Source of the DNA: Pseudomonadota bacterium
Lineage (GTDB): Bacteria; Desulfobacterota; Desulfobacteria; Desulfobacterales; JBDRRP01
Length of the DNA: 64,000 nucleotides
Direction of reading: 5' to 3'
Assembly (NCBI GenBank): GCA_043825735.1
Contig: JBDRRP010000107.1
Span: forward strand, 186,001-250,000
Shown: positions 45,686-58,248 of the stretch, piece after piece
How the letters are laid out: the number at the start of each line of letters is the position of its first letter
How positions within the stretch are numbered: position 1 is the first letter of the stretch
Translations under genes and position numbers: made by a program
Notes under the pieces: model-generated
Databases searched by the model: none
What the model saw: the letters and a program-made list of their open reading frames with translations, nothing else
What the model was told of the DNA's origin: nothing

Positions 45686-46129
45686 ATGAAACCAAAGATT
45701 CTATTCATTTGCCAGCACAACAGCGGACGCAGCCAGATGGCCGAGGCGTATTTGAGGAAGTTCGCCGGGGACTATTTCGAGATCGAGAGTGCCGGTCTGG
45801 TGCCGGCCGAAAAAGTGAACCCGCTGGTGGTCGAAGTGATGAAGGAAGAGGGCGTCGATCTATCTGAAAAGCGGCCACAGAGTGTTTTCGACCTGTTCAG
45901 GACGGGAAATATCTTCGCTCATGTCATCACCGTCTGTCATGATTCAGAAAACCAGTGCCCTGTCTTTCCCGGCATTACCTGCCGCTGGCATTGTCCATTT
46001 CCGGATCCAAACGCCGTATCGGGCTCGCAAAAGGAAAAGCTCGCAAAAGTCCGTCAAATCAGAGATCAAATCAAGCATTGGCTTTTGAATCCTGAAGCGG
46101 GCGGCTTTTCTCTCGAAGCCCTGAAATAG
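45686..46129 (+). CDS. arsC: Arsenate reductase ArsC (LMW-PTP fold)
   Basis: CQHNSGRSQMAE P-loop, ITVC...CPVFPG, FPDP; AGGAG RBS. Confidence 0.85.
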   Translation: MKPKILFICQHNSGRSQMAEAYLRKFAGDYFEIESAGLVPAEKVNPLVVEVMKEEGVDLSEKRPQSVFDLFRTGNIFAHVITVCHDSENQCPVFPGITCRWHCPFPDPNAVSGSQKEKLAKVRQIRDQIKHWLLNPEAGGFSLEALK

Positions 46130-46193
46130 CGGGTTTTTATGCCATTTCAATACGATGCAATCAGCAGCAAGTCCACGAAAGGGCCGAGATTGC

Positions 46194-47126
46194 ATGATCA
46201 CCGGTAGACGATTTGCGGCCATCGATATCGGCTCGAATGCCGTTCGGCTGCTGCTCTCACAGGTTTTCGAAACCGACAGTGGCCCTTATTTTCGCAAGAT
46301 TTCGCTGATCCGCATGCCGATCCGGTTAGGCAAGGATGTGTTTATCGATGGAATGATCTCCAAAGACAATGAAGATCAGTTGCTCAATACGATCCAGGGC
46401 TTCAAATCCCTGATCGCCTCCTACCGCCCCCTGGCGTATCGCGCCTGCGCCACCTCCGCCATGAGAGAGTCCAGCAATGGCGAAAAAATCCGAAAGCACA
46501 TTTTGGAAAAGACCGGCGTAGATATCCTCATTGTCAGCGGCAAACTGGAGGCCCGAATCATTTTTGCCAATAACCCATGGACCCGATTGGAAAACGGCAA
46601 TGCCTGCATGTTTGTGGATGTCGGCGGCGGCAGCACGGAAATCACCGTTTATTCCAACCGTAAAACCAGTTCCCATTCATTTGCCATCGGCACCATCCGG
46701 CTGATGGAAGGGATCGTGGATAAACCGCAATGGAAGGAGATGAAATCCTGGGTGCAGCACCACACCCGGAAATTTTCCGGTCTCACGGCCATCGGCAGCG
46801 GCGGCAACATCAACAAGATCATCAATTTGGCCCAATGTGGGGGCGGCAGGTCCATTGCTTATGAAAAGATGAAAAAAGTCAGGGACCATCTGAAATTTTT
46901 CTCTTATGACGATCGCATCACTAAACTCGGCCTGAAACCCGACCGTGCGGATGTCATCATGCCTGCCCTGAAGATCTACCTGTCGGTGATGAAATGGGGC
47001 GGCATCCCAACCATCGAGGTGCCGCAGATCGGGCTTGCGGACGGGTTGGTACGCCTGATGTATCGTCAGTATATTCAGTCCATCAAGCCCCTAAAATTTG
47101 GAAAGAAAGACCAAGTCGCGGCCTAG
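46194..47126 (+). CDS. ppx: Exopolyphosphatase Ppx/GppA family, short form
   Basis: AAIDIGSNAVR, ATSAMRE, DVGGGSTE, DRADVI, GLADG. Confidence 0.85.
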   Translation: MITGRRFAAIDIGSNAVRLLLSQVFETDSGPYFRKISLIRMPIRLGKDVFIDGMISKDNEDQLLNTIQGFKSLIASYRPLAYRACATSAMRESSNGEKIRKHILEKTGVDILIVSGKLEARIIFANNPWTRLENGNACMFVDVGGGSTEITVYSNRKTSSHSFAIGTIRLMEGIVDKPQWKEMKSWVQHHTRKFSGLTAIGSGGNINKIINLAQCGGGRSIAYEKMKKVRDHLKFFSYDDRITKLGLKPDRADVIMPALKIYLSVMKWGGIPTIEVPQIGLADGLVRLMYRQYIQSIKPLKFGKKDQVAA

Positions 47127-47519
47127 CTATTTTCTCCGTTTCTTGGCTTTCTTTTTTTTATCACTCTTCTTGTTCTTATCTTTCTTTGCCTTTTCTCTTT
47201 TCTGCTTGTCATTTTGGGTTTTATTTTTATCAGTCTTCTTTTTTTGCGGTTTATCCTTTTTGCTTTTCTCACGTGCTGCGGTCCCGGCAGGGGCGATATC
47301 GGCGGATTTGCTTCCACCGACCGACAAATCGGCGGCAGTCAGCTGTTGGCAGGCATCAGAGATGATCTGTTTTGCTCTGGATTCACCAAGACCGGGGACA
47401 GCCGAAACCTGATCGATGGTTGCGGCAGCTAAATCTTCGGCAGAGGCGAAACCTGCTGCTGAGAGTTTTTCGGCAGTGGCCGGACCAACTCCTTTAACTT
47501 GAAGAATTGAAGTAGGCAA
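47127..47519 (-). CDS. Helix-hairpin-helix protein with Lys-rich C-terminal tail
   Basis: VKGVGPATAEKL and VPGLGESRAK HhH motifs; tail of about 45 aa dominated by Lys; TTG start with AAGGA RBS. Confidence 0.8.
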   Translation of the reverse strand: MPTSILQVKGVGPATAEKLSAAGFASAEDLAAATIDQVSAVPGLGESRAKQIISDACQQLTAADLSVGGSKSADIAPAGTAAREKSKKDKPQKKKTDKNKTQNDKQKREKAKKDKNKKSDKKKKAKKRRK

Positions 47520-47820: not shown

Positions 47821-48990
47821 CTACGATCCGTCCGGCAGGGAATTTACGGATTCGTGGATGTGAATCTCGCGCCGTGCCAGTTCGGCGAAGACGTCGGCCG
47901 GCGCGAAGGCAAATTCCGGCATTATGACGCCCGGCGTCGGCACCCGTCCCTTGGCGATGAGCTGAGCGCCGATGGCCATGGGAATTCCAACGCAGCGCGT
48001 GTAGGCCCTGAGCCCTTCCCAGCCGTCCACTGACCCGTCCGACGGCGGGTGGGTGTGTGTCAGCACGTGCTCGACGGGACCGCCGCCTCGGGTGCCGATA
48101 ACCTGCACGTGGAGGGCGTACCCGTAAAGGTCGGTGGTTTGCCCTTCGGGCGCCTGCTGGAGGTAACGGCCGATGGCATCCATGATGCCGATGGTTTCCC
48201 CGCCCACACGGATGGGGTCGTTTCTCATAAAGCCCCAGTCGTAGAGCGCGCGGACCAGTTGCATGTTTTGGGGCGGCCAGGTGCCGCGCACCTCGATCAG
48301 TCGCACCCCTTTGTCCTTGAGGTAAGCATGAGCGGTGCGCGTTTCCGCGTGGGGTATGATCCACTGGGGATGGGTGCCATAAGGGCCGGGCAGGGTGATG
48401 ACCCGCTCCCGCGAGAACGGGGGCACCTGGACAAAGGCGTCGTCTTCGAAGACCACCCGTCCGGGAAGCACTGGGTCGTATTCGTAGGTGGTCGTCTCTG
48501 TTATTGACGGTGAAAAGGCGATGGGGCGAAAGGCGCCGTGGCTCACCCGGACGGTATCCACCGTGTCCAGTTGATCGGCCGCGTGGCGGACCATCATGTC
48601 GGTGATTCCGGGAGTCATGCCGAAACCCGGCACATGCACACGCTGGTGGGCTTTGAACGCTGCGTCGTACTGGTACTCTTCTCCGAACCCGTTGAGGTTG
48701 ATGCCATGGCATCCTGCCTCGGCGATGCAGGCCGTGGAGCGGTCGTTGAGGTGGATGGTGGTGCCGTCCATGACCACATCGTAACCGCGCATTAGCGAAA
48801 CGGCGGAGGCCGCATCGTTAATATCCACTCGCTGATAATCCACGCAGCTGCCCAGCGATTCGGCGAGTGCTTTGCCGGCGTCTGCGTTCAGGTCTCCGAT
48901 GGTGATGCATTCGAAGTCGGAAAATGCAGCGAGATCGCGCACCGCTTCACTGCAGATCTTGCCGGCGCCCCCCAGGCAGAGAATCTTCAT
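47821..48990 (-). CDS. Saccharopine dehydrogenase-family NAD(P)-dependent oxidoreductase
   Basis: CLGGAGKI Rossmann motif, [24 protein letters not shown]-coupled to phnW; AAGGAG RBS. Confidence 0.8.
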
Positions 48991-50117
48991 GTGTTCGTCT
49001 CCTTTGGCCAGTACATGGCGCTGGCGACCGCACCCAGCAGCCGGTCCATGTCGGCAGGCTGCACATCGCCGATGTTGCCGATGCGAAACGTGTCCACATC
49101 AGTGACTTTCCCCGGGTAGATGACAAACCCCTGCTCCTTGAGTTCACGGTAAAACCGCTTGAACTCAAACAACGGATGCTCCGGATAATGGAACGCCGTG
49201 ATGATGGGAGACTGGCACGACGCCGGTAGCAACGTGCGAAACCCCAGCCGCTTCATCCCTTCAATCAGCACCCGGTGGTTTTCAAGGTAGCGCAAGTGCC
49301 GCGCCGCGACGCCGCCTTCTGCCGCGAGTTCCTCCAGCGCGCGGGCAAAGGCCCGCACCGTATGGGTCGGCGAAGTGAAGCGCCATTTGCCCAGGCCCTC
49401 CTCCATGGTCTGCCATTGATCAAACAGATCGAGGCTGAGCGAGCGAGCCTGGCCTTCGGTGGTCTCAAGCGCCTGGCGCCGGGCGATCACGAAGCCGAAC
49501 CCCGGCACGCCCTGGATGCACTTGTTTGCGCTGCTGATGAGGTAGTCGGCGCCCATGGCGGCGACATCCATGGGCATGCCGCCGAAGCTGCTCATGGCAT
49601 CCACGATGTAGATTTTGCCGCCGGCCTTGACGCTGCGGCCGATGGCGTCGACGGGATTGAGCATCCCTGTGGTGGTTTCGCAATGGACCACCGCCACGTG
49701 CGTGATCTGCGGATCGCTGTCCATGGCGCGGGTGACGTCATCAGGGTTCGCTGGCGCCCGCTCGCCGGTGTCCAGGACCGTGTGCGCGATGCCGATGCGC
49801 CGGGCGATCTGGCCGATGCGCCGACCGTAGGCGCCGTTGGCCACAACCAGCAGTTTGCCTTCACGCGGCAGCGCAGTGGTCACCGTGGCTTCCACGCTGA
49901 AGGTGCCGCTGCCCTGCATCAGGACGCTGGTGTAGCCGCTCGCAGCGGTGGCCAGTCGCACGAGCCGGCGCCGGATATCCTGGACGATGCCATTGTAATC
50001 ATCGTCCCAGGTGCACCAGTCTCTGAGCATGGCGCTTTTGACCGACAAGGTCGTGGTCAGCGGTCCGGGGGTGAGCAGCAGGTAAGGGTTTTCAGGCAGA
50101 TTTCCATTCGGGTTCAT
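48987..50117 (-). CDS. phnW: 2-aminoethylphosphonate--pyruvate transaminase
   Basis: [57 protein letters not shown]; alternative start 50147. Confidence 0.92.
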
Positions 50118-50146
50118 GCGGCGCTCCGATTCAATGGGATAGGGCA

Positions 50147-51538
50147 TCAAAGATCCGCTTCGACCACGCTCAGGGACTGATCCAGAATGTCCAGTGCGTT
50201 GTCCAAGTCCTTTCTATCGATATTCAGGGGCGGCGACAGGGGGATGAAGCTCCCCTGGGAGGTCTTGAAACTGAGGCCCCGGTGAAGGCACTCGTACATC
50301 AGCCGGTTCGCGGCATCGACAGCCCTCACCTTGGTCTGTCGATCAGTGACCAGATCAATGCCCATGAGCAGACCCACCCCACGCACATCTCCGATGAGAG
50401 GGTGTTCCGTTTTCATCGATTCAAGTCGCGCCAAGGCAAAACGCCCAAGTTCGTCCGCGCGGGCCACCAGGCCCTCTGATTCGATGACGTCGATGGCGGC
50501 CAGCCCCGCAGCGGCGGCCACCGGGTTTTTCTCATGCGTGTAGTGCCCCAGGGCTTTTTCCGGTGCATCCACGAGGTCCTTTTTCACGATCATGGCAGCA
50601 AATGGAATCACGCCGCCGCCGAGGCCTTTCCCCAGCGTCAGGATATCGGGGACCACATCGAACCGCTCGCAGGCGAACATGCGTCCGGTGCGCCCCAGAC
50701 AAATGGCGGTTTCGTCCATGATGAGCAGGGCGCCGCGGCGGTCGCAGATGCGGCGAACCGCCTGCCAGTAACCCGGCGGCGGCGGGTTGACGGCAGTGTT
50801 TCGCACCGGTTCGGCAATAACGGCCCCCACGTCGCCCTCTTTTTCAAGGACGTAGTCGATGTAGGCCGCGCATTTGAGGCCGCAGCTGTCGCAGCGGCCT
50901 TCCGGATCCCACAGGCACCGGTAAGGTTCGGCTGGCGGCACCTGCTGGGCGCCGGGCAGCAGTGGGCCGACGCCCTGCCGGAACATGGTTTCGCCGCTGA
51001 TGGACATGGCATCCATGGAGGCACCGTGAAAGGCGTCCCACATCGACACGATTTTGAACCGCCCCGTGGCGGCGCGGGCGGCTTTCATGGCCATGCCCAC
51101 GGCGGTGGTGCCGCCCGGTGCGAACAGCGCCCGGCCGAGCGGCTCCGGCGTGATGGCGATAAGCTTTTCGGCGAGCCGGATCGCCGGCTGGTTGGTGTAT
51201 CGCCGGGTACAGAACGCCAGTCGGTCCAGCTGGTCTTTGATGGCCGCAATCACCCGGGGATGGGAAAACCCCACCTGGTGAACGCTGTTGCCGTGAAAAT
51301 CCAGAAAAGCTCTTCCCTGAAGGTCTTCGATGACACTCCCCCGGCAGGCGGAAAGCACGTTGAGGCACGGCGTCGACAGGGACTGGTGAACGAACGCGCG
51401 GGCGTCTCTCGCCAGCCACTGGCGTGTGTCGGCATCGATGGCCGTCTCGCTCCAGCGGCGCCGATGAGATGACAGATTGCTGTCGCCTTCGGACAGGTCC
51501 ACCGGGAGGCCGGTTGCCGGCGGTGCGGAGGTGGTCAT
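50147..51538 (-). CDS. pbfA: Class-III PLP enzyme, probable (R)-1-hydroxy-2-aminoethylphosphonate ammonia-lyase
   Basis: [41 protein letters not shown]; located between phnX and phnW; ATG 51538 with AAGGA RBS. Confidence 0.8.
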
Positions 51539-51617
51539 GGTGTCTGTTTCCTTTGTTCGATCGGCCGCCGCGGGCACGTTTGAAAAATGGACGTCCGGAC
51601 GCGGCCAGTCGCTAAGT

Positions 51618-52451
51618 TTATGGGCGCTCACCGCGTGCCAGGCGGGCCTGGATATCATCGATCAGCGGTAGCACTTCCCAAATGCCCTCGGCCACATAGT
51701 GCGCACCGGCCTCTTGGTAGCGCTTGCCGATGGCTGACAGCCGAACCGATAGCGCTGCGGGATTCAAGGCTTCAGAAGCCTCACGGCTCAAGCCCAGCTC
51801 GTTTCCCGAACGCGTCAGACCGATGGTCCACATGCCGGCGTTAAGGCCTTCCTGAATATCGGAGATCGTATCGCCGATCTTCACCATGGCCTCCATGGGG
51901 TAGACGCCCAGCTGCATGGCGTTGAGAAAGCACATCCAAGGATAGGGGCGGCCGGCGGGCACATCCGAGGAGCAGACGACGGCGTCGGGCGCATAACCCT
52001 TTTCGTGGGCTGCCGGGGCCAGCACGTCCATCATGGGCGCGGTGTAGCCGGTACAGGAACCGATCAAAATGCCTTGGCGCCGCAGGGCCTCAGCGGTTTT
52101 TAAAAGACCGGGGATGGGGTCTGCGTGGCGGGCGATGGTCTCGACCATCATGGTTTCCGTGGCCGCATAGAGCCGATCCACATCCGTGTGCATTGGCGGT
52201 TTGCCGTGGACCTGGCGCCACCGGTCGGCTACCGCCGGCAGCGCGCACATGCTTCTGACGTGGGTTTTCTTCTCAAGCCCCATGAACCGGCGGGCCTCGT
52301 CGAATGTGACTTCGACGTCGAAACGGGCAAAGACATCGACGAAAACGGCTGCCGGGCCCAGGCAGCCGTAATCCACAGCCGTGCCTGCCCAATCCAGAAC
52401 AACGGCTTTCACCGGCCCGGTGTAGGGGCCTTTTTTAATGTATATGTCCAA
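51618..52451 (-). CDS. phnX: Phosphonoacetaldehyde hydrolase
   Basis: LDWAGTAVDYG, MGLEKKTH (Schiff-base Lys), GRPYPWM, KIGDT, GLNAGMW. Confidence 0.95.
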   Translation of the reverse strand: MDIYIKKGPYTGPVKAVVLDWAGTAVDYGCLGPAAVFVDVFARFDVEVTFDEARRFMGLEKKTHVRSMCALPAVADRWRQVHGKPPMHTDVDRLYAATETMMVETIARHADPIPGLLKTAEALRRQGILIGSCTGYTAPMMDVLAPAAHEKGYAPDAVVCSSDVPAGRPYPWMCFLNAMQLGVYPMEAMVKIGDTISDIQEGLNAGMWTIGLTRSGNELGLSREASEALNPAALSVRLSAIGKRYQEAGAHYVAEGIWEVLPLIDDIQARLARGERP

Positions 52452-52624: not shown

Positions 52625-54985
52625 TCAACTCTGATGCCGCCAGGCTTGGGTCTTTTTCTTGTAGAAGTGGCTGCCCAGTTCGATGAGCCCCCGGACAGCC
52701 AGGTTGGTGATGACGATCAGCATGCACATGGCCGCGGCCGGTGCCGTGTCGCCGGCGTCGTCCATGTTGACGACGGCTACGGACGCCAGGGGCAGATCGC
52801 TGGTGTAGAGAAAAATCACCGCCGACACCGTCGCCATGGCGCTGACGAAGTAAAAGGCCCCGATTTCCAAAATCGCCGGAAAGCATACCGGTACGGTCAC
52901 GCGGAAAAAGGTCCGGTAAAAGGGAACGGACATGGATTCCGATACCGCTTCAAACTCCTTGTCCAGCTGCCGGAGCGCCGTTGTGGCAGTCAGAAAGCTC
53001 ACCGTATAAAAGTGGATGATGTTTGAAATGACCAGAATCGCCATGGTGCCGTAAAGAAACAGGAAAGGGTTGGGCAGCCCGAAGCCGGTCAGTGGAATGG
53101 TAATGCGCGGGTTGTTGAAGAAAAAGATGTAGGCGATGCCGATGACCAGTCCGGGCAGGGCCAGCGGGATGATGGACAGAAAATAGGCCGTTCGTCGCAG
53201 CCACGCCACCCCCTTTGTCTTCTCGATGAGGTAGGCGCTGGAGAAGGTGATTACGGCGCCGAAAACGGCGGTCAGCGCGGCCATGGCGACGCTGTTGCCG
53301 AATGCCCGGTATCCGCCCCCGCCCACATCCGCGAAGTGGTAATGATGGAGCGTCCACAGCTGAGGGTAGGTCTCGGGGTTGGTAAAGGCGTAGGGCCATA
53401 TCTTCACGAAGGAAGCGATCCCCGCCATGAATACCATGATTAGGATGAAACCGGCGATTCCGGCGTTGACAGCGAAGAACGCCGCGTCCCGCGCTGTGTT
53501 GGTTTTGGGCATGAAGGGCACGCTGTTGGCCGTGACCACCACCACGGAGCGGCGCTGGACGATCCGGTCGGCGACAAAGGCCAGCACCGTCGGCACAAGC
53601 AGGATGATCGACACCGTGGCGCCCATGCCGAAGTTCTGCTGTCCGATGACCTGCTTGTAAATGTCCACGGCGAGGATGTTGAATTGTCCGCCCACGACTT
53701 TCGGGGCGCCGAAATCGGTGAACGACAGCGTGAAGCAGACGAACACCGCGCTCAGCAGACCGAACTTGATGCTGGGGACGGTCACCGTGAAAAAGGTGCG
53801 GATCTTGCCGGCGCCCAGGCTTTCCGCGGCTTCGTAGAGCCGCGCGTCGGTGTTGGACAGGGCCACCTGCAAGATCATAAACGCCGGCGGAAAGGTGAAC
53901 ACCACTTCGGCGATGGTGATGCCGTTGAACCCGTAAAGATCAATGTTCCAGGCGAGCCAAGGGTAGGTCTCGAAAAATCCGGTGGTGATGACGCCCTTGT
54001 TGCCGAAAAGATAGACCAGCGACAGGCCGTAGAGCATGGTGGGGGCGAACAGGGGCAGCATGGCGATGACGCGAAATAGTGATTTCCCGGGCATCTGCGT
54101 GCGCTGAATGCCATAGGCATAGCCGAAGGCCAGCGTCACGGACAGAGCCGTGCTCCAGAGCGCCACGCGGATGCTGTTCCACACGGACTGGGCCAGTCCG
54201 GTGTCCTCCATGTGGCCTACCAGAAAATCGATCGCACCTGCCGCCTGTAAGACGAGCAAAAACAGCACCGCGATGGTGAGCATACCGGTCTGGTTGAACG
54301 GCAGCGCCGGACGAACCAGCGTAAAGACGAAAAAGGCGATCAGCATCCCGGAAGCGGCGATGTAGCCCAGCGTCAGCAGGGTTCTCACCTGGGAAAGCCC
54401 ATGAATGCCGAAATAATCGAAAAAATTGACCAGCCCGATGAACCGTTTGATCAACACGAGGTTGTCGCCCAGCGGCAGAGGCTCACCGTCAACGGCCCAG
54501 CGCTGCCCGGCGGTTCGGTGGACGCTGATGGGGCGGATATCGAGCCGGTTGCGGATGGTGGCCTGAGGCCGGGCGTGAGAGCAGACCACCGCTTCGATGC
54601 GATCCCCATCGACAGTGACGACAATGCCGTCGGCATCTGCCCGGCCCATGTGAAGGGGCGTTTCGGTGTTGTCGATGAAGAGCTTCGGGCGACCGTTTTC
54701 CATCATGAGGACGACGGCGCGTCCGGCCACATCGATTTGCCCGCGAAAGTCATCATCAATCTTTTCCTGCTCGGTAGGCTCTTCGATCTTAACAGGCAGT
54801 TCGACATTTACGGCCCGACGGACCACCTCCATCAGTGGCAGCACGACGCCGCCCAGCAGCCAGAGACAGGCCAGACCGATAAAGGCGCGCCTGACCCAGT
54901 CTTCGGGGCTCGCTTTTTTGGATACACTCCGGCCGCGGAGGGCGGTATTGAGCGCCAGAGCTTCAATGCTGTCGGATGGGGTCAC
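52625..54985 (-). CDS. 2-aminoethylphosphonate ABC transporter permease (two BPD domains) with N-terminal insertions
   Basis: LYEAAESLGA and EFEAVSESM EAA motifs, TDFGAPKVVGG, VVNMDDAGD. Confidence 0.85.
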   Translation of the reverse strand: MTPSDSIEALALNTALRGRSVSKKASPEDWVRRAFIGLACLWLLGGVVLPLMEVVRRAVNVELPVKIEEPTEQEKIDDDFRGQIDVAGRAVVLMMENGRPKLFIDNTETPLHMGRADADGIVVTVDGDRIEAVVCSHARPQATIRNRLDIRPISVHRTAGQRWAVDGEPLPLGDNLVLIKRFIGLVNFFDYFGIHGLSQVRTLLTLGYIAASGMLIAFFVFTLVRPALPFNQTGMLTIAVLFLLVLQAAGAIDFLVGHMEDTGLAQSVWNSIRVALWSTALSVTLAFGYAYGIQRTQMPGKSLFRVIAMLPLFAPTMLYGLSLVYLFGNKGVITTGFFETYPWLAWNIDLYGFNGITIAEVVFTFPPAFMILQVALSNTDARLYEAAESLGAGKIRTFFTVTVPSIKFGLLSAVFVCFTLSFTDFGAPKVVGGQFNILAVDIYKQVIGQQNFGMGATVSIILLVPTVLAFVADRIVQRRSVVVVTANSVPFMPKTNTARDAAFFAVNAGIAGFILIMVFMAGIASFVKIWPYAFTNPETYPQLWTLHHYHFADVGGGGYRAFGNSVAMAALTAVFGAVITFSSAYLIEKTKGVAWLRRTAYFLSIIPLALPGLVIGIAYIFFFNNPRITIPLTGFGLPNPFLFLYGTMAILVISNIIHFYTVSFLTATTALRQLDKEFEAVSESMSVPFYRTFFRVTVPVCFPAILEIGAFYFVSAMATVSAVIFLYTSDLPLASVAVVNMDDAGDTAPAAAMCMLIVITNLAVRGLIELGSHFYKKKTQAWRHQS

Positions 54986-55022: not shown

Positions 55023-56150
55023 TCAGGCCGCTGTTTCGCGAAAGAGCAGTATTTTATCCGGCGGCAGATGAATCGGCAGCTCTACGGTCTCTTTCAGGGC
55101 CATCTCTTCGACGGCCTCCGACTGAAGATCCATCTTCAGCGTCTGGTCGGTGACCCCGCCGGCCGGATGCAGCACCTGGAGATACACCCGGTAAAGGGAC
55201 CCTCGGAACATAATGGCCTGGACCTTGGCGTTGACGACGTTTTGATCATGGGTTTCGCCGTTTCTAATCACGCGGATGTCTTCGGGTCGCACGGCCATGG
55301 TCACGGCCCGTCCCTGATGTTCAGCTGCACGGCCGGGCGCCAAGCTTAGAGTGTAGTCTCCGAAAAGGACCGTGTCGGGATCTTTTCCCCGGCAGTTGGG
55401 GATGAAATTCATGGACCCGATGAAGCCGGCCACGAAACTGTTGCTGGGCAGGCGGTACAGCTCATGGGGGGAGGCAAACTGCATCAAGCACCCGTCTTTG
55501 ATGACCACGACGCGGTCGGCCATGGTCAATGCCTCCTCCTGGTCATGGGTGACCATGATGGTGGTGATCCCCAGGGTCTCCTGGATGCGGCGGATTTCCA
55601 TTCTCAAATGCACCCGAACCCTGGCGTCCAGCGCCGAGAGCGGCTCGTCGAGCAGCAGCAGAGATGGCTCCGGGGCCAGGGCCCGCGCCAGGGCGACCCG
55701 CTGTTTCTGGCCGCCGGAAAGCTGGGCCGGGTATTTGAACGCCTGATCGGAAAGCCCCACCAGGGAGAGCATCTGCAGGGCGCGGGATCGGCGCTGGGCG
55801 GCCGTCTGGTGGCCTTTTCGGATGCCGTACATCACATTGCCCAGCACACTGATGTTGGGAAAGAGCGCATACGACTGAAACACGATCCCAAATCGCCGCT
55901 TGGCCACAGGCTCACGGGAGACGTCCCGATCGTCGAGCCAGACGGCCCCGGTGTTTTGCTCCTCCAGGCCGGCGATCACGCGCAGCAGTGTGGTTTTTCC
56001 GCAGCCGCTGGGGCCGAGAATGGAGACGAACTCGCCTTTTCTCACGCCTAGACTGACATTGTTGAGGGCAATGAAATCACCAAATGTTTTGGTGACGCCC
56101 CGGACTTCGATGAAGTACTCGCCTGGATCGATGTTTCTGACGGCTTCCAT
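55023..56150 (-). CDS. 2-aminoethylphosphonate ABC transporter ATP-binding protein
   Basis: GPSGCGKTT, LSGGQKQR, LLDEP, VTHDQEEA; ATG 56150 with GGAG RBS. Confidence 0.9.
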   Translation of the reverse strand: MEAVRNIDPGEYFIEVRGVTKTFGDFIALNNVSLGVRKGEFVSILGPSGCGKTTLLRVIAGLEEQNTGAVWLDDRDVSREPVAKRRFGIVFQSYALFPNISVLGNVMYGIRKGHQTAAQRRSRALQMLSLVGLSDQAFKYPAQLSGGQKQRVALARALAPEPSLLLLDEPLSALDARVRVHLRMEIRRIQETLGITTIMVTHDQEEALTMADRVVVIKDGCLMQFASPHELYRLPSNSFVAGFIGSMNFIPNCRGKDPDTVLFGDYTLSLAPGRAAEHQGRAVTMAVRPEDIRVIRNGETHDQNVVNAKVQAIMFRGSLYRVYLQVLHPAGGVTDQTLKMDLQSEAVEEMALKETVELPIHLPPDKILLFRETAA

Positions 56151-56280
56151 GAGGGTCTCCAAGAGAAAGGGTCCGAGGCCTGGTCCGCCATTTTTGTGTG
56201 GCGGATACAAGGGGGCAAGGATTCGATTGAAAACCCACTGCACCAAACATGAATCCTTGAACCCCCGAATCCTGGTTTGT

Positions 56281-57312
56281 CTATTTTTTTGGTTCGCTCT
56301 TTTGATCGTACCGCTTGGTCCATTCGGCGAGGATGGCCTTGCGATTCTTGGCGGCCCAGTTCAGATCGTTCTTGATGAGCACGGACGTGGGATCCGCCGG
56401 CCACCCCTTGGGGGCGTCCACCTTGATGTCCGTGGCTACGATGGGGTAGACCTTGGCATACATGGCCATGGCCGCGTCGCTGATGGCCCAGTCCAAAAAG
56501 ACCTTGGCGTCTTTGTTGATTCTGGGCTTCTTGATGAGGGCGTTGGCCTCAACGTCGTAGCCGGAGCCTTCCTTGGGGAACACCACTTCGACCGGCTCCC
56601 CCTTGCTGCGCTGCATGAAGCCGCGGTAGGCAAAGGAAATCCCGATCGGGAACTCGCCCTTGCCGGCCAACTTGGCCGGTTTGGATCCGGAGTGGGTGTA
56701 GAGGGCCATGTTCTTGTCGAGCTGGTCCAGGTAATTCCAGCCGGCTTCTTCCCCCATGAGCTGAAGGATGGCCGACACAGTGAGAAAACCAGTCCCGGAA
56801 GATGCCGGGTTGGGCATGACCAGATACCCCTTGTATTCGGGCTTGAGCAGGTTGGCATAGGACTGGGGCATGTCCAGGTTGTGCTTTTTCATTTCGATGG
56901 TGTTGCCCACAAAACCTGTCACCCAGGCCTTGATGCCGACCCAATGCGCTTCTTTGTTGGTCGTGTCCTTCATACCGGTTTTGACCTTATTAACCCCTTT
57001 GGGGTTGTAGCCTTTGAGCATGCCCAGGTCGTCGCAAACCAGCAGGCTCGTGGCTGCGGTCCCCCACACCACATCGGCGACCGGGTTGTCTTTTTCAGCC
57101 AGCAGTTTGGCCGTCACGATGCCCGTGGAATCGCGCACGATGTTGAGCTTGATGTCCGGGTGGGCCTTTTGGAAGGCCGGGACGTACACTGCCAGTTCAT
57201 CGTCTTCCAGGGCGGTGTAGACCGATAGTTCTCCCGCCCAGGCGCTGCAGCACATCCCGGTTACGATGATGGCGAGCAGCGCCGCCCCAATTACTTTCAT
57301 GGTCGATTTCAT
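56281..57312 (-). CDS. 2-aminoethylphosphonate ABC transporter substrate-binding protein
   Basis: Signal peptide, VYTALE, VRDSTGIVTAKLLAEKDNP, MPNPASSGTG, YTHSGSKP. Confidence 0.9.
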   Translation of the reverse strand: MKSTMKVIGAALLAIIVTGMCCSAWAGELSVYTALEDDELAVYVPAFQKAHPDIKLNIVRDSTGIVTAKLLAEKDNPVADVVWGTAATSLLVCDDLGMLKGYNPKGVNKVKTGMKDTTNKEAHWVGIKAWVTGFVGNTIEMKKHNLDMPQSYANLLKPEYKGYLVMPNPASSGTGFLTVSAILQLMGEEAGWNYLDQLDKNMALYTHSGSKPAKLAGKGEFPIGISFAYRGFMQRSKGEPVEVVFPKEGSGYDVEANALIKKPRINKDAKVFLDWAISDAAMAMYAKVYPIVATDIKVDAPKGWPADPTSVLIKNDLNWAAKNRKAILAEWTKRYDQKSEPKK

Positions 57313-57339: not shown

Positions 57340-58248
57340 TTATGGATAGACGGCGGAAGGGTGATTTCCTTCCGGTGTTGATGGACGGACACTTTCGAGC
57401 AAGTCGAAAAAGGCGCTCACCGTCCTCAGACGGCGAAATTCAGGAAGGCAGATAAAATACTGAGACGCCCGCATGTCTGTCCCGTCAATGCGGATTTTAA
57501 ACAACCGCTCGTCTGTGGTGTATTCGTCTTCAAGCGCAATGCCAAAACCGATTCCTTCCACCACCGCATCGCGAAGGGTTTCCCAGCTATCGAGTTCAAG
57601 CACGATGTCGGGGACCACACCGAATGTCTTCAGCCGGGCCATAAAGATTTGCCGGGTCATGGATGTGGGGTGCAGCGCCACCATGCGCTGGTCATGTAGC
57701 GCCGGGATCTGAAGGGACTGAGTGCCGGCCCATTCGTGACCGCGGCCGACGAAAAGCACGATTTCCTGATTGCCATAAAGAGAGCAGTGGACCCTGGGAT
57801 CCGGCAGGGACCCGGTGATCTCGGCGATATCCAAACGACAGGCCAGCACCTCATCCAGCAGATTCATGGAATCATCGACCCGCGCCTTCACTTGAATTTC
57901 CGGGTACCGGTTCATGAACGCAGCCAGGACTTCCATGACCAGGTAATTACAACTCATCCCTACGCTGAGACTCCCTTTCTTCAGCTGACTGGCAGAATCC
58001 AGGATCGACTCGATATCGTCGACGATGCTGATGACCTTGCGGGCCTTGAGAACCAGGTCCTTGCCTATCGTGCTGAATTGGACCGCCTTGCCATGGCGCC
58101 AGAAAAGCTTCACACCATGGGTGCCCTGGAGTTTTCGCATCTGCATGGAAACCGCCGGCTGGCTGATGCCCAGAAAGCTGGCGGCTTTGGAAAAACTTCG
58201 CTCCCGCTCCAGCGCATCCAGCACTCGCAGCTGTCCAATGTTCATCAT
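57340..58248 (-). CDS. LysR-family regulator of the phosphonate operon
   Basis: SFSKAASFLGISQPAVS HTH; co-oriented upstream of the transporter. Confidence 0.9.
   Translation of the reverse strand: MMNIGQLRVLDALERERSFSKAASFLGISQPAVSMQMRKLQGTHGVKLFWRHGKAVQFSTIGKDLVLKARKVISIVDDIESILDSASQLKKGSLSVGMSCNYLVMEVLAAFMNRYPEIQVKARVDDSMNLLDEVLACRLDIAEITGSLPDPRVHCSLYGNQEIVLFVGRGHEWAGTQSLQIPALHDQRMVALHPTSMTRQIFMARLKTFGVVPDIVLELDSWETLRDAVVEGIGFGIALEDEYTTDERLFKIRIDGTDMRASQYFICLPEFRRLRTVSAFFDLLESVRPSTPEGNHPSAVYP

Follow-up and report, generated by a model that had tools for sequence, protein, structure and literature searches.

An uncharacterised saccharopine-dehydrogenase-like family in aminophosphonate operons: candidate NAD+-dependent N-methyl-2-aminoethylphosphonate dehydrogenases

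This analysis concerns a gene in a 64,000-nucleotide stretch of DNA from a Pseudomonadota bacterium (GenBank assembly GCA_043825735.1, contig JBDRRP010000107.1, positions 186,001 to 250,000; the whole stretch is called the window, and its coordinates are used below). The gene ends an operon for degradation of 2-aminoethylphosphonate (AEP), and encodes an NAD-binding protein related to saccharopine dehydrogenase, here called the dehydrogenase. We conclude that the dehydrogenase is a real, widespread and uncharacterised accessory enzyme of aminophosphonate catabolism, and consider it very probable that it is some C-N oxidoreductase of a phosphonate pathway. The specific role that we favour, with confidence and doubt about evenly balanced, is that of an NAD+-dependent dehydrogenase of N-methyl-AEP (M1AEP), which would release phosphonoacetaldehyde and methylamine.

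Operon, gene family and linkage to phn genes

A preliminary description of positions 47821..52451 had reported the gene order phnX-pbfA-phnW followed by a saccharopine-dehydrogenase-family gene that is coupled to phnW by an ATGA overlap, and all four genes are indeed found there on the minus strand. The list of open reading frames (ORFs) extends the operon past this segment, with the minus-strand order phnS2T2U2-phnX-pbfA-phnW-dehydrogenase:

47821..48990, minus strand: uncharacterised NAD-binding dehydrogenase gene, 389 amino acids; PF03435 and PF16653 above cut-off; carboxyspermidine/saccharopine-dehydrogenase fold; candidate N-methyl-AEP:NAD+ oxidoreductase
48987..48990, minus strand: ATGA, where the phnW stop codon overlaps the dehydrogenase start codon; AGGAG site 8 nucleotides upstream in the sequence
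48987..50150, minus strand: phnW, AEP:pyruvate transaminase (TIGR02326, 584 bits versus cut-off 400.8); likely start 50117, internal to the longest ORF
50147..51658, minus strand: pbfA, ammonia-lyase of (R)-1-hydroxy-2-aminoethylphosphonate (HAEP) (NF049939, 666 bits versus cut-off 525); likely start 51538, internal to the longest ORF
51618..52451, minus strand: phnX, phosphonoacetaldehyde hydrolase (TIGR01422, 331 bits versus cut-off 220)
52625..54985, minus strand: phnU2-type ABC permease (TIGR03262, 689 bits versus cut-off 593)
55023..56246, minus strand: phnT2-type ABC ATPase (TIGR03265, 446 bits, slightly below cut-off 457.7)
56281..57312, minus strand: phnS2 AEP-type substrate-binding protein (TIGR03261, 464 bits versus cut-off 393)
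57340..58248, plus strand: divergent lysR regulator (best match TIGR03339 phn_lysR, 211 bits, below cut-off 341)

With PhnW, PhnX and PbfA over curated cut-offs and clustered with an AEP-type importer, this is a hydrolytic AEP operon. The dehydrogenase gene has the same GC content (0.63; 0.76 at third codon positions) as phnW, pbfA and phnX, and matched no family in an NCBIfam scan, NF043000 included. Promoter and terminator scans gave results at chance level (2 versus 3.8 expected, and 14 versus 11.0, respectively). The host genome, which is 100% complete, carries dsrA, so the host is likely a sulfate reducer, and contains no match to phosphoenolpyruvate (PEP) mutase (TIGR02320), which argues that the phn operon is catabolic and not biosynthetic. 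The host's true carboxy(nor)spermidine dehydrogenase (CASDH)-like gene precedes nspC on another contig (C57), separate from the phn-operon gene.

The best 120 of 1487 protein matches are 65-76% identical to the dehydrogenase, and the subfamily as a whole spans 60-76%. In a library clustered at 50% identity, full-length scores drop from 586 bits to 299 and lower, and this gap defines a discrete subfamily. The ESM Atlas and protein databases hold only automatic saccharopine-dehydrogenase names for the family, and the names in a sister family of about 30% identity are uninformative. Among the 185,579 GTDB species genomes scanned, 347 loci of the subfamily were confirmed. We analysed the best 80 of these and 80 of 319 metagenome loci, both sets being skewed to the query's nearest relatives. 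The tree and residue counts use 132 distinct sequences, obtained from 161 loci after 10 were dropped for a stop in the naive translation and identical ones were merged.

A locus was considered linked if PhnW, PbfA or PhnX was found within 8 kb (tblastn thresholds of 45% for PhnW and PbfA, 40% for PhnX). Such a core phn gene is near the dehydrogenase in 38 of the 80 GTDB loci (27 of the 47 flanked by 10 kb or more) and in 21 of the 80 metagenome loci, most of which are short (8 of the 22 with at least 10 kb of flank); when weaker phn markers are also counted, the linked loci number 51 and 45, respectively. The full-length phn matches submitted to NCBIfam exceeded their cut-offs (109 proteins scanned). 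Judged by record titles, linked loci occur in Desulfobacterales, Syntrophales, Desulfovibrio, SAR324, Spirochaetia, Bacillales, Planctomycetaceae, Verrucomicrobiales and Terracidiphilus; every main branch of the tree has some. The dehydrogenase gene varies in position: it can follow phnW, precede phnX or phnW, diverge from phnS, converge with phnW, or follow a second PbfA-family gene. PhnW is present in 15 of the 16 loci that have PhnX, and the exceptional locus is truncated by the end of its contig, while pbfA is missing from many clusters (8 loci of the 80 hold phnW and phnX only).

At the level of genomes, we selected 50 carriers from the 80 loci, deliberately including unlinked ones, and many of these genomes are incomplete; PhnW exceeds its cut-off in 23 of them and PhnX in 24. 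Among the 25 carriers titled as deltaproteobacterial, 15 have PhnW or PhnX. In an even sample of 230 other genomes of the host phylum, PhnX exceeds its cut-off in three and PhnW in none; this sample contains no carrier of the dehydrogenase, and so serves as background only. The gene is thus patchily distributed: none of these 230 genomes has it, as against 27 of the 61 genomes in the family to which Brevibacillus reuszeri belongs.

The Brevibacillus family shows an association as well, although its genomes are kin and not independent: all 27 carriers have PhnX, versus three of the 34 non-carriers, and 31 genomes have neither. In 18 of the carriers, phnX shares the strand of the dehydrogenase gene and is no more than about 1.2 kb away; in seven it is at 5-26 kb, and in two on a separate contig. 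The recurrent linkage that the preliminary description had suggested looking for is thus borne out both here and in the wider set of loci. In two of the three genomes with PhnX only, phnW and deoR are intact and clear remnants of the deleted gene lie between them; the third has a 36-nucleotide trace. The remnants imply that the dehydrogenase gene is an old but dispensable accessory gene of the operon, as expected for an enzyme that opens the pathway to an alternative substrate. In Bacillus sp. N5-665 (L210:2219-10008), the order is phnS-T-U-X-W, dehydrogenase (60% identity), deoR, in a 5.5-Mb record that is filed as a plasmid but is chromosome-like in size.

Fold and active site

No PDB chain matched the single dehydrogenase sequence, and alignment to known structures required a profile. 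An AlphaFold2 model (pLDDT 86) has a three-domain fold, which together with PF03435 and PF16653 places the protein in the saccharopine-dehydrogenase-like superfamily. The solved structures closest to the model are carboxyspermidine dehydrogenases (8deb and 8h52; Z 40.3, root-mean-square deviation 2.8-2.9 A, 362-365 aligned residues, 17-18% identity), followed by lysine 6-dehydrogenase (3abi; Z 37.4), saccharopine dehydrogenases (1e5l and 2axq; Z 29-31) and homospermidine synthases (4plp and 6y87; Z 25-26).

For BfCASDH, it has been proposed that His228 acts as the base, that Glu230 and Ser144 form a relay, and that Glu188 and Glu229 hold aspartate semialdehyde (PMC10413350). In the profile alignment, with numbering counted by hand, His228, Glu230, Ser144, Glu188 and Glu229 correspond to H214, E216, T130, E170 and A215 of the dehydrogenase, and the first four are invariant in all 132 distinct family sequences. 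The family therefore shares with CASDH (8deb, 8h52; PMC10413350, PMC13683441) its fold, the His-x-Glu pair, the Ser/Thr relay and the equivalent of Glu188. However, position 215 is Ala in 55 and Ser in 77 of the 132 sequences, so that the His228-Glu229-Glu230 triad is incomplete. The NADP motif of CASDH (Ser34-Arg35-Thr36) is also lost, being replaced by Asp33 (Asp in 127 sequences, Glu in four, a gap in one). An Asp at this nucleotide-selectivity site is the usual sign of a preference for NAD+. Moreover, the gene stands in a catabolic phn context, with no nspC neighbour and no match to NF043000. The dehydrogenase thus resembles a carboxyspermidine dehydrogenase working in reverse, yet does not have the triad, motif, HMM match and neighbour that define that family.

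A further difference involves the acidic loop of CASDH (residues 101-120), which is proposed to bind the polyamine (PMC13683441). This loop is about 10 residues shorter in the dehydrogenase family, and its shortening fits a small amine as substrate. Taken together, the fold and residues would suit an enzyme that interconverts an aldehyde plus a small amine with a secondary amine, and whose aldehyde site is altered. H151, R155, R235 and R332 are invariant in the same 132 sequences, and could bind the phosphonate group.

The other structural relatives are less similar. Lysine 6-dehydrogenase (3abi) and the glutamate-forming saccharopine dehydrogenases (1e5l, 2axq) share the fold and would share a reaction in which NAD(P) serves to oxidise C-N to an aldehyde, but are 13-19% identical and, in the account given by PMC10413350, lack the His-Glu-Glu of CASDH, of which the dehydrogenase keeps the His and the second Glu. 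The gene context of the dehydrogenase is not that of lysine metabolism. Homospermidine synthase (4plp, 6y87) belongs to the same fold family (Z about 26), but is a larger protein with a polyamine substrate and 11-13% identity. The expectation that the fold is suited to NAD(P)-dependent C-N chemistry thus holds, in that imine-chemistry residues are kept and an NAD+ site is likely.

Proposed reaction and its alternatives

The dehydrogenase would serve as an accessory entry enzyme into the hydrolytic aminophosphonate pathway. A hydride would pass from C2 of M1AEP to NAD+, and the resulting iminium, handled by the His214-Glu216-Thr130 relay, would be hydrolysed to phosphonoacetaldehyde and methylamine. 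NAD-linked oxidation to an aldehyde is thermodynamically uphill. PhnX would consume the aldehyde and thereby draw this step forward, as described for the similar reaction of PbfG/PhpC (PMC13576164).

According to PMC10590968, M1AEP is a common natural product that is not processed by PhnW, and PbfB, PbfC and PbfD, accessory enzymes of phnWX clusters, turn it into phosphonoacetaldehyde and methylamine, which is the reaction proposed here. These enzymes are FAD-dependent PF01266 flavoproteins that use O2 or an unidentified acceptor (PMC10590968), whereas the dehydrogenase is an unrelated Rossmann NAD enzyme with PF03435 and PF16653 only. A PbfD1-type probe and two TIGR03329-like flavoprotein probes found no match in the 160 loci. 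TIGR03329, which we take to be PbfC, exceeds its cut-off in none of the 50 carrier genomes, and TIGR03364 does so in one. PbfD1 has been linked to TIGR03364 (PMC10590968). The host genome has two PF01266 genes, both on contigs other than that of the operon. Other NAD-dependent accessory enzymes discovered through phn context, namely the racemase PbfF and the 2-hydroxyethylphosphonate dehydrogenases PbfG/PhpC (PMC12366243, PMC13576164), differ in having PF02826, PF00107 and PF00465 folds and in acting on C-OH instead of C-N. A PbfG-like gene shares a cluster with the dehydrogenase in locus L063, so the two are not substitutes for one another.

Our reading departs from the preliminary description in several respects. 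That description saw an oxygen-independent route that would suit an anaerobe, but the gene is carried by 27 of the 61 Brevibacillus-family genomes, and is beside phnW in Verrucomicrobiales, Terracidiphilus and Planctomycetaceae. These groups are largely aerobic. Independence of O2 is also not new, since PbfC is described as a dehydrogenase for which O2 is a poor acceptor and NAD(P)+ is none (PMC10590968). Both facts weaken the argument from anaerobic life, and the novelty lies in a scaffold that is NAD-linked and flavin-free. The description had also known of no account of this family in phn clusters, and the literature that we searched, which excluded most subscription papers, contained no description of a saccharopine dehydrogenase in connection with aminophosphonates or phnW. 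The word 'saccharopine' is absent from the main text of the PbfB/C/D, PbfF and PbfG papers, and also has no match in the supplement of PMC13576164; searches that combined it with phosphonoacetaldehyde or aminoethylphosphonate returned only single mentions under unrelated titles.

Two kinds of neighbouring gene bear on the nature of the substrate. In L123 and L125, which are Syntrophales-type loci, a binding protein, two full-length MtmB homologues, a corrinoid protein and a methyltetrahydrofolate transferase precede the dehydrogenase, and partial methyl-transfer cassettes are found in L021/L126, L129 and L134. We had considered the MtmB homologues as methylamine demethylases, but dropped this idea, as their frames are open, without an amber codon. 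The sole amber-free MtmB-type enzyme tested, as described in PMC13044021, demethylates quaternary amines and not methylamine. The cassettes point to N-methylated substrates, possibly trimethyl-AEP. The cassette in L123 (367-6852) is complete, with two pyrrolysine-free MtmB genes, corrinoid protein, methyltetrahydrofolate transferase, DUF1638 and a PhnS2-like binding protein, and is a candidate anaerobic demethylase for methylated aminophosphonates. Secondly, a subclade with support 1.0 (three genes in two genomes, one of which has two copies) is located with ethanolamine genes:

L038:6270-14436 and L060:692-4214: dehydrogenase directly before eutA-eutB(-eutC)
L030: ethanolamine-permease-like gene and corrinoid gene

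This subclade differs from the family at positions 169, 175, 228, 256 and 268, with changes near the active-site Glu, although the changes at 169 and 256 are also seen outside it. A search of 81 genomes of that taxonomic family for more eut-linked members revealed none, but found two new full loci, phnX-phnW-dehydrogenase and pbfA-phnW-dehydrogenase.

Several points weigh against oxidation of M1AEP by the dehydrogenase. It is by inference that we assign NAD+ as cofactor, a catabolic direction, the side on which the C-N bond would be cleaved, and M1AEP as substrate, the last of these from context, fold and conservation; the roles of the invariant His and Arg residues are likewise guessed from conservation. 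There is no core phn gene in the available DNA of 42 of the 80 GTDB loci (many are short, and phnX is 13-26 kb away in some), and 11 of the 50 carrier genomes, incomplete metagenome-assembled genomes (MAGs) included, lack a PhnW-like match. The flavoprotein probes cover PbfD1-type and TIGR03329-like proteins, the latter on the assumption that TIGR03329 represents PbfC. The MtmB cassettes do not show release of methylamine, are limited to closely related Syntrophales-type loci, and have no MtmB counterpart in the host genome. Finally, direct oxidation does not explain the ethanolamine context: either the subclade has switched substrate, or the whole family passes on a primary amine.

The latter possibility leads to the alternative that survives best, though we regard it as unlikely: a redox-neutral amine exchange, similar to that of homospermidine synthase and with NAD recycled, or cleavage of the other C-N bond, such that an N-methyl compound is converted to AEP, HAEP or ethanolamine for PhnW, PbfA or ethanolamine ammonia-lyase. 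The family would then be, with the same low probability, an NAD-recycling 'de-methylaminase' that exchanges methylamine for ammonia on an N-methyl-2-aminoethyl phosphonate, hydroxyphosphonate or alcohol. This single mechanism fits all contexts, including the near-constant presence of PhnW beside PhnX, the additional PbfA-family lyase gene that immediately precedes the dehydrogenase gene in many Syntrophales loci, and eutA-eutB directly downstream in L038 and L060; the fold is shared with homospermidine synthase, and the lack of net NADH would suit anaerobes. However, the fold is far nearer to CASDH, PhnW and PbfA are required for their own substrates regardless, and the residue differences of the small eut subclade mean that its substrate may have changed. 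In review passages, only an O2-dependent route, TmpA/TmpB, is given for N,N,N-trimethyl-AEP. If the amine exchange is true, it would form an oxygen-free route for this compound together with upstream pyrrolysine-free MtmB/corrinoid demethylases.

Less probable again is that the chemistry is as we favour but the substrate is another N-substituted aminophosphonate: N,N-dimethyl-AEP, N-methyl-HAEP or an N-carboxyalkyl (opine-like) AEP. Bulky secondary amines are the known substrates of the fold, the gene is closely coupled to PbfA-family genes in Syntrophales, and demethylase cassettes are nearby. Against this, the amine-entry loop is shortened, many clusters have no pbfA, and the review passages name no natural opine-type AEP (no search was aimed at one).

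The preliminary description had also considered deamination of AEP itself, and an NAD-dependent AEP dehydrogenase replacing PhnW has its precedents, namely lysine 6-dehydrogenase, which has the same fold and deaminates a primary amine, and PbfD2, which replaces PhnW. One carrier clade lacks a PhnW match in all three genomes checked (G238, G240 and G243). Nonetheless, PhnW, whose route is already free of O2, is almost always kept beside PhnX, and the Brevibacillus losses affect the dehydrogenase gene and not phnW. AEP is thus unlikely as the main substrate, and we consider replacement of PhnW quite improbable.

Acetaldehyde is a product common to PhnX and EutBC. The dehydrogenase might therefore act downstream, in reductive amination of acetaldehyde for detoxification or as an electron sink, since acetaldehyde links both main contexts and microcompartment genes flank the dehydrogenase in Bacillales. 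We consider this very improbable, because six Syntrophales-type carriers (G236, G237, G246, G003, G247 and G004; incomplete MAGs) have PhnW but no PhnX match, and the Bacillales clusters with shell genes already contain an acylating aldehyde dehydrogenase. Least credible, and largely refuted by context, is an ordinary polyamine, lysine or saccharopine enzyme present by chance, or a biosynthetic N-alkylating step: the automatic database names and nearest structures favour it, but NF043000 is unmatched, the genuine CASDH-nspC pair lies on a different contig, phn linkage spans phyla, and the complete host genome has no PEP mutase.

Other phosphonate gene arrangements and significance

The carrier loci contain further arrangements that merit description. 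SauS-like acylating aldehyde dehydrogenases (483-487 bits, cut-off 600) and citryl-CoA-lyase-like genes are present in Syntrophales-type loci and in genomes with a PhnW but no PhnX match (L016:2-5000, L019:995-5008, L028, L052:2810-8210). Their clusters also encode a PhnA-like hydrolase (200-223 bits, below its cut-off of 408), to which L052 adds two CoA-transferase subunits. These clusters suggest an undescribed anaerobic route via phosphonoacetyl-CoA. Two divergent PbfA-family lyases, both over the NF049939 cut-off, are found in L016:4990-7982, L019:4998-7983, L020, L022, L023, L028, L031, L034 and L048; the lyase that reads in the direction of the dehydrogenase shares just 47-49% identity with the PbfA of the window, and may take another substrate. 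Natural fusions join PbfA to PhnW (874 amino acids; L078:5295-7919) and PhnX to PhnW (648 amino acids; L206:8592-10538), and frames of 643-671 codons around PhnX in G276, G401 and G412 suggest that the latter recurs.

Bacillales phnWX clusters (L051:9270-15892, L076, L205) include microcompartment shell genes, acylating acetaldehyde dehydrogenase, PduL and EutN, and may encode a phosphonate-linked microcompartment that handles acetaldehyde. In one clade (L006:2-9158, L014, L090-L107, L130), the dehydrogenase gene is the last of an operon with a PhnX-like HAD (TIGR03351-like, below cut-off), a PRK06062 class-III aminotransferase, a glutamate-semialdehyde-aminomutase-like gene and an ABC importer; in the three genomes checked, neither PhnW nor PhnX was found in canonical form.

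Within the window, the PhnU2 permease ORF (52625-54985) encodes 786 amino acids, and its family match begins at residue 249, leaving a long N-terminal region that shorter relatives do not have. On the other strand, 3' of the operon (45686-47519), are arsenate-reductase-like and exopolyphosphatase-like genes, followed by a gene for a small helix-hairpin-helix protein whose tail is rich in lysine.

The described M1AEP entry enzymes are flavoproteins, mainly of Proteobacteria and the Fibrobacteres-Chlorobi-Bacteroidetes and Planctomycetes-Verrucomicrobia-Chlamydiae groups (PMC10590968). If the proposed reaction is true, an NAD-dependent enzyme in at least 347 species-level loci, from sulfate reducers, syntrophs, gut Clostridia and Bacillales, would close the M1AEP gap in sediments, digesters, guts and soil. 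It would represent a fourth, non-flavin and independent origin of the PbfB/C/D step, and would add to the reactions of the carboxyspermidine-dehydrogenase fold; as an NAD dehydrogenase of small amines, it would also be of interest for biocatalysis.

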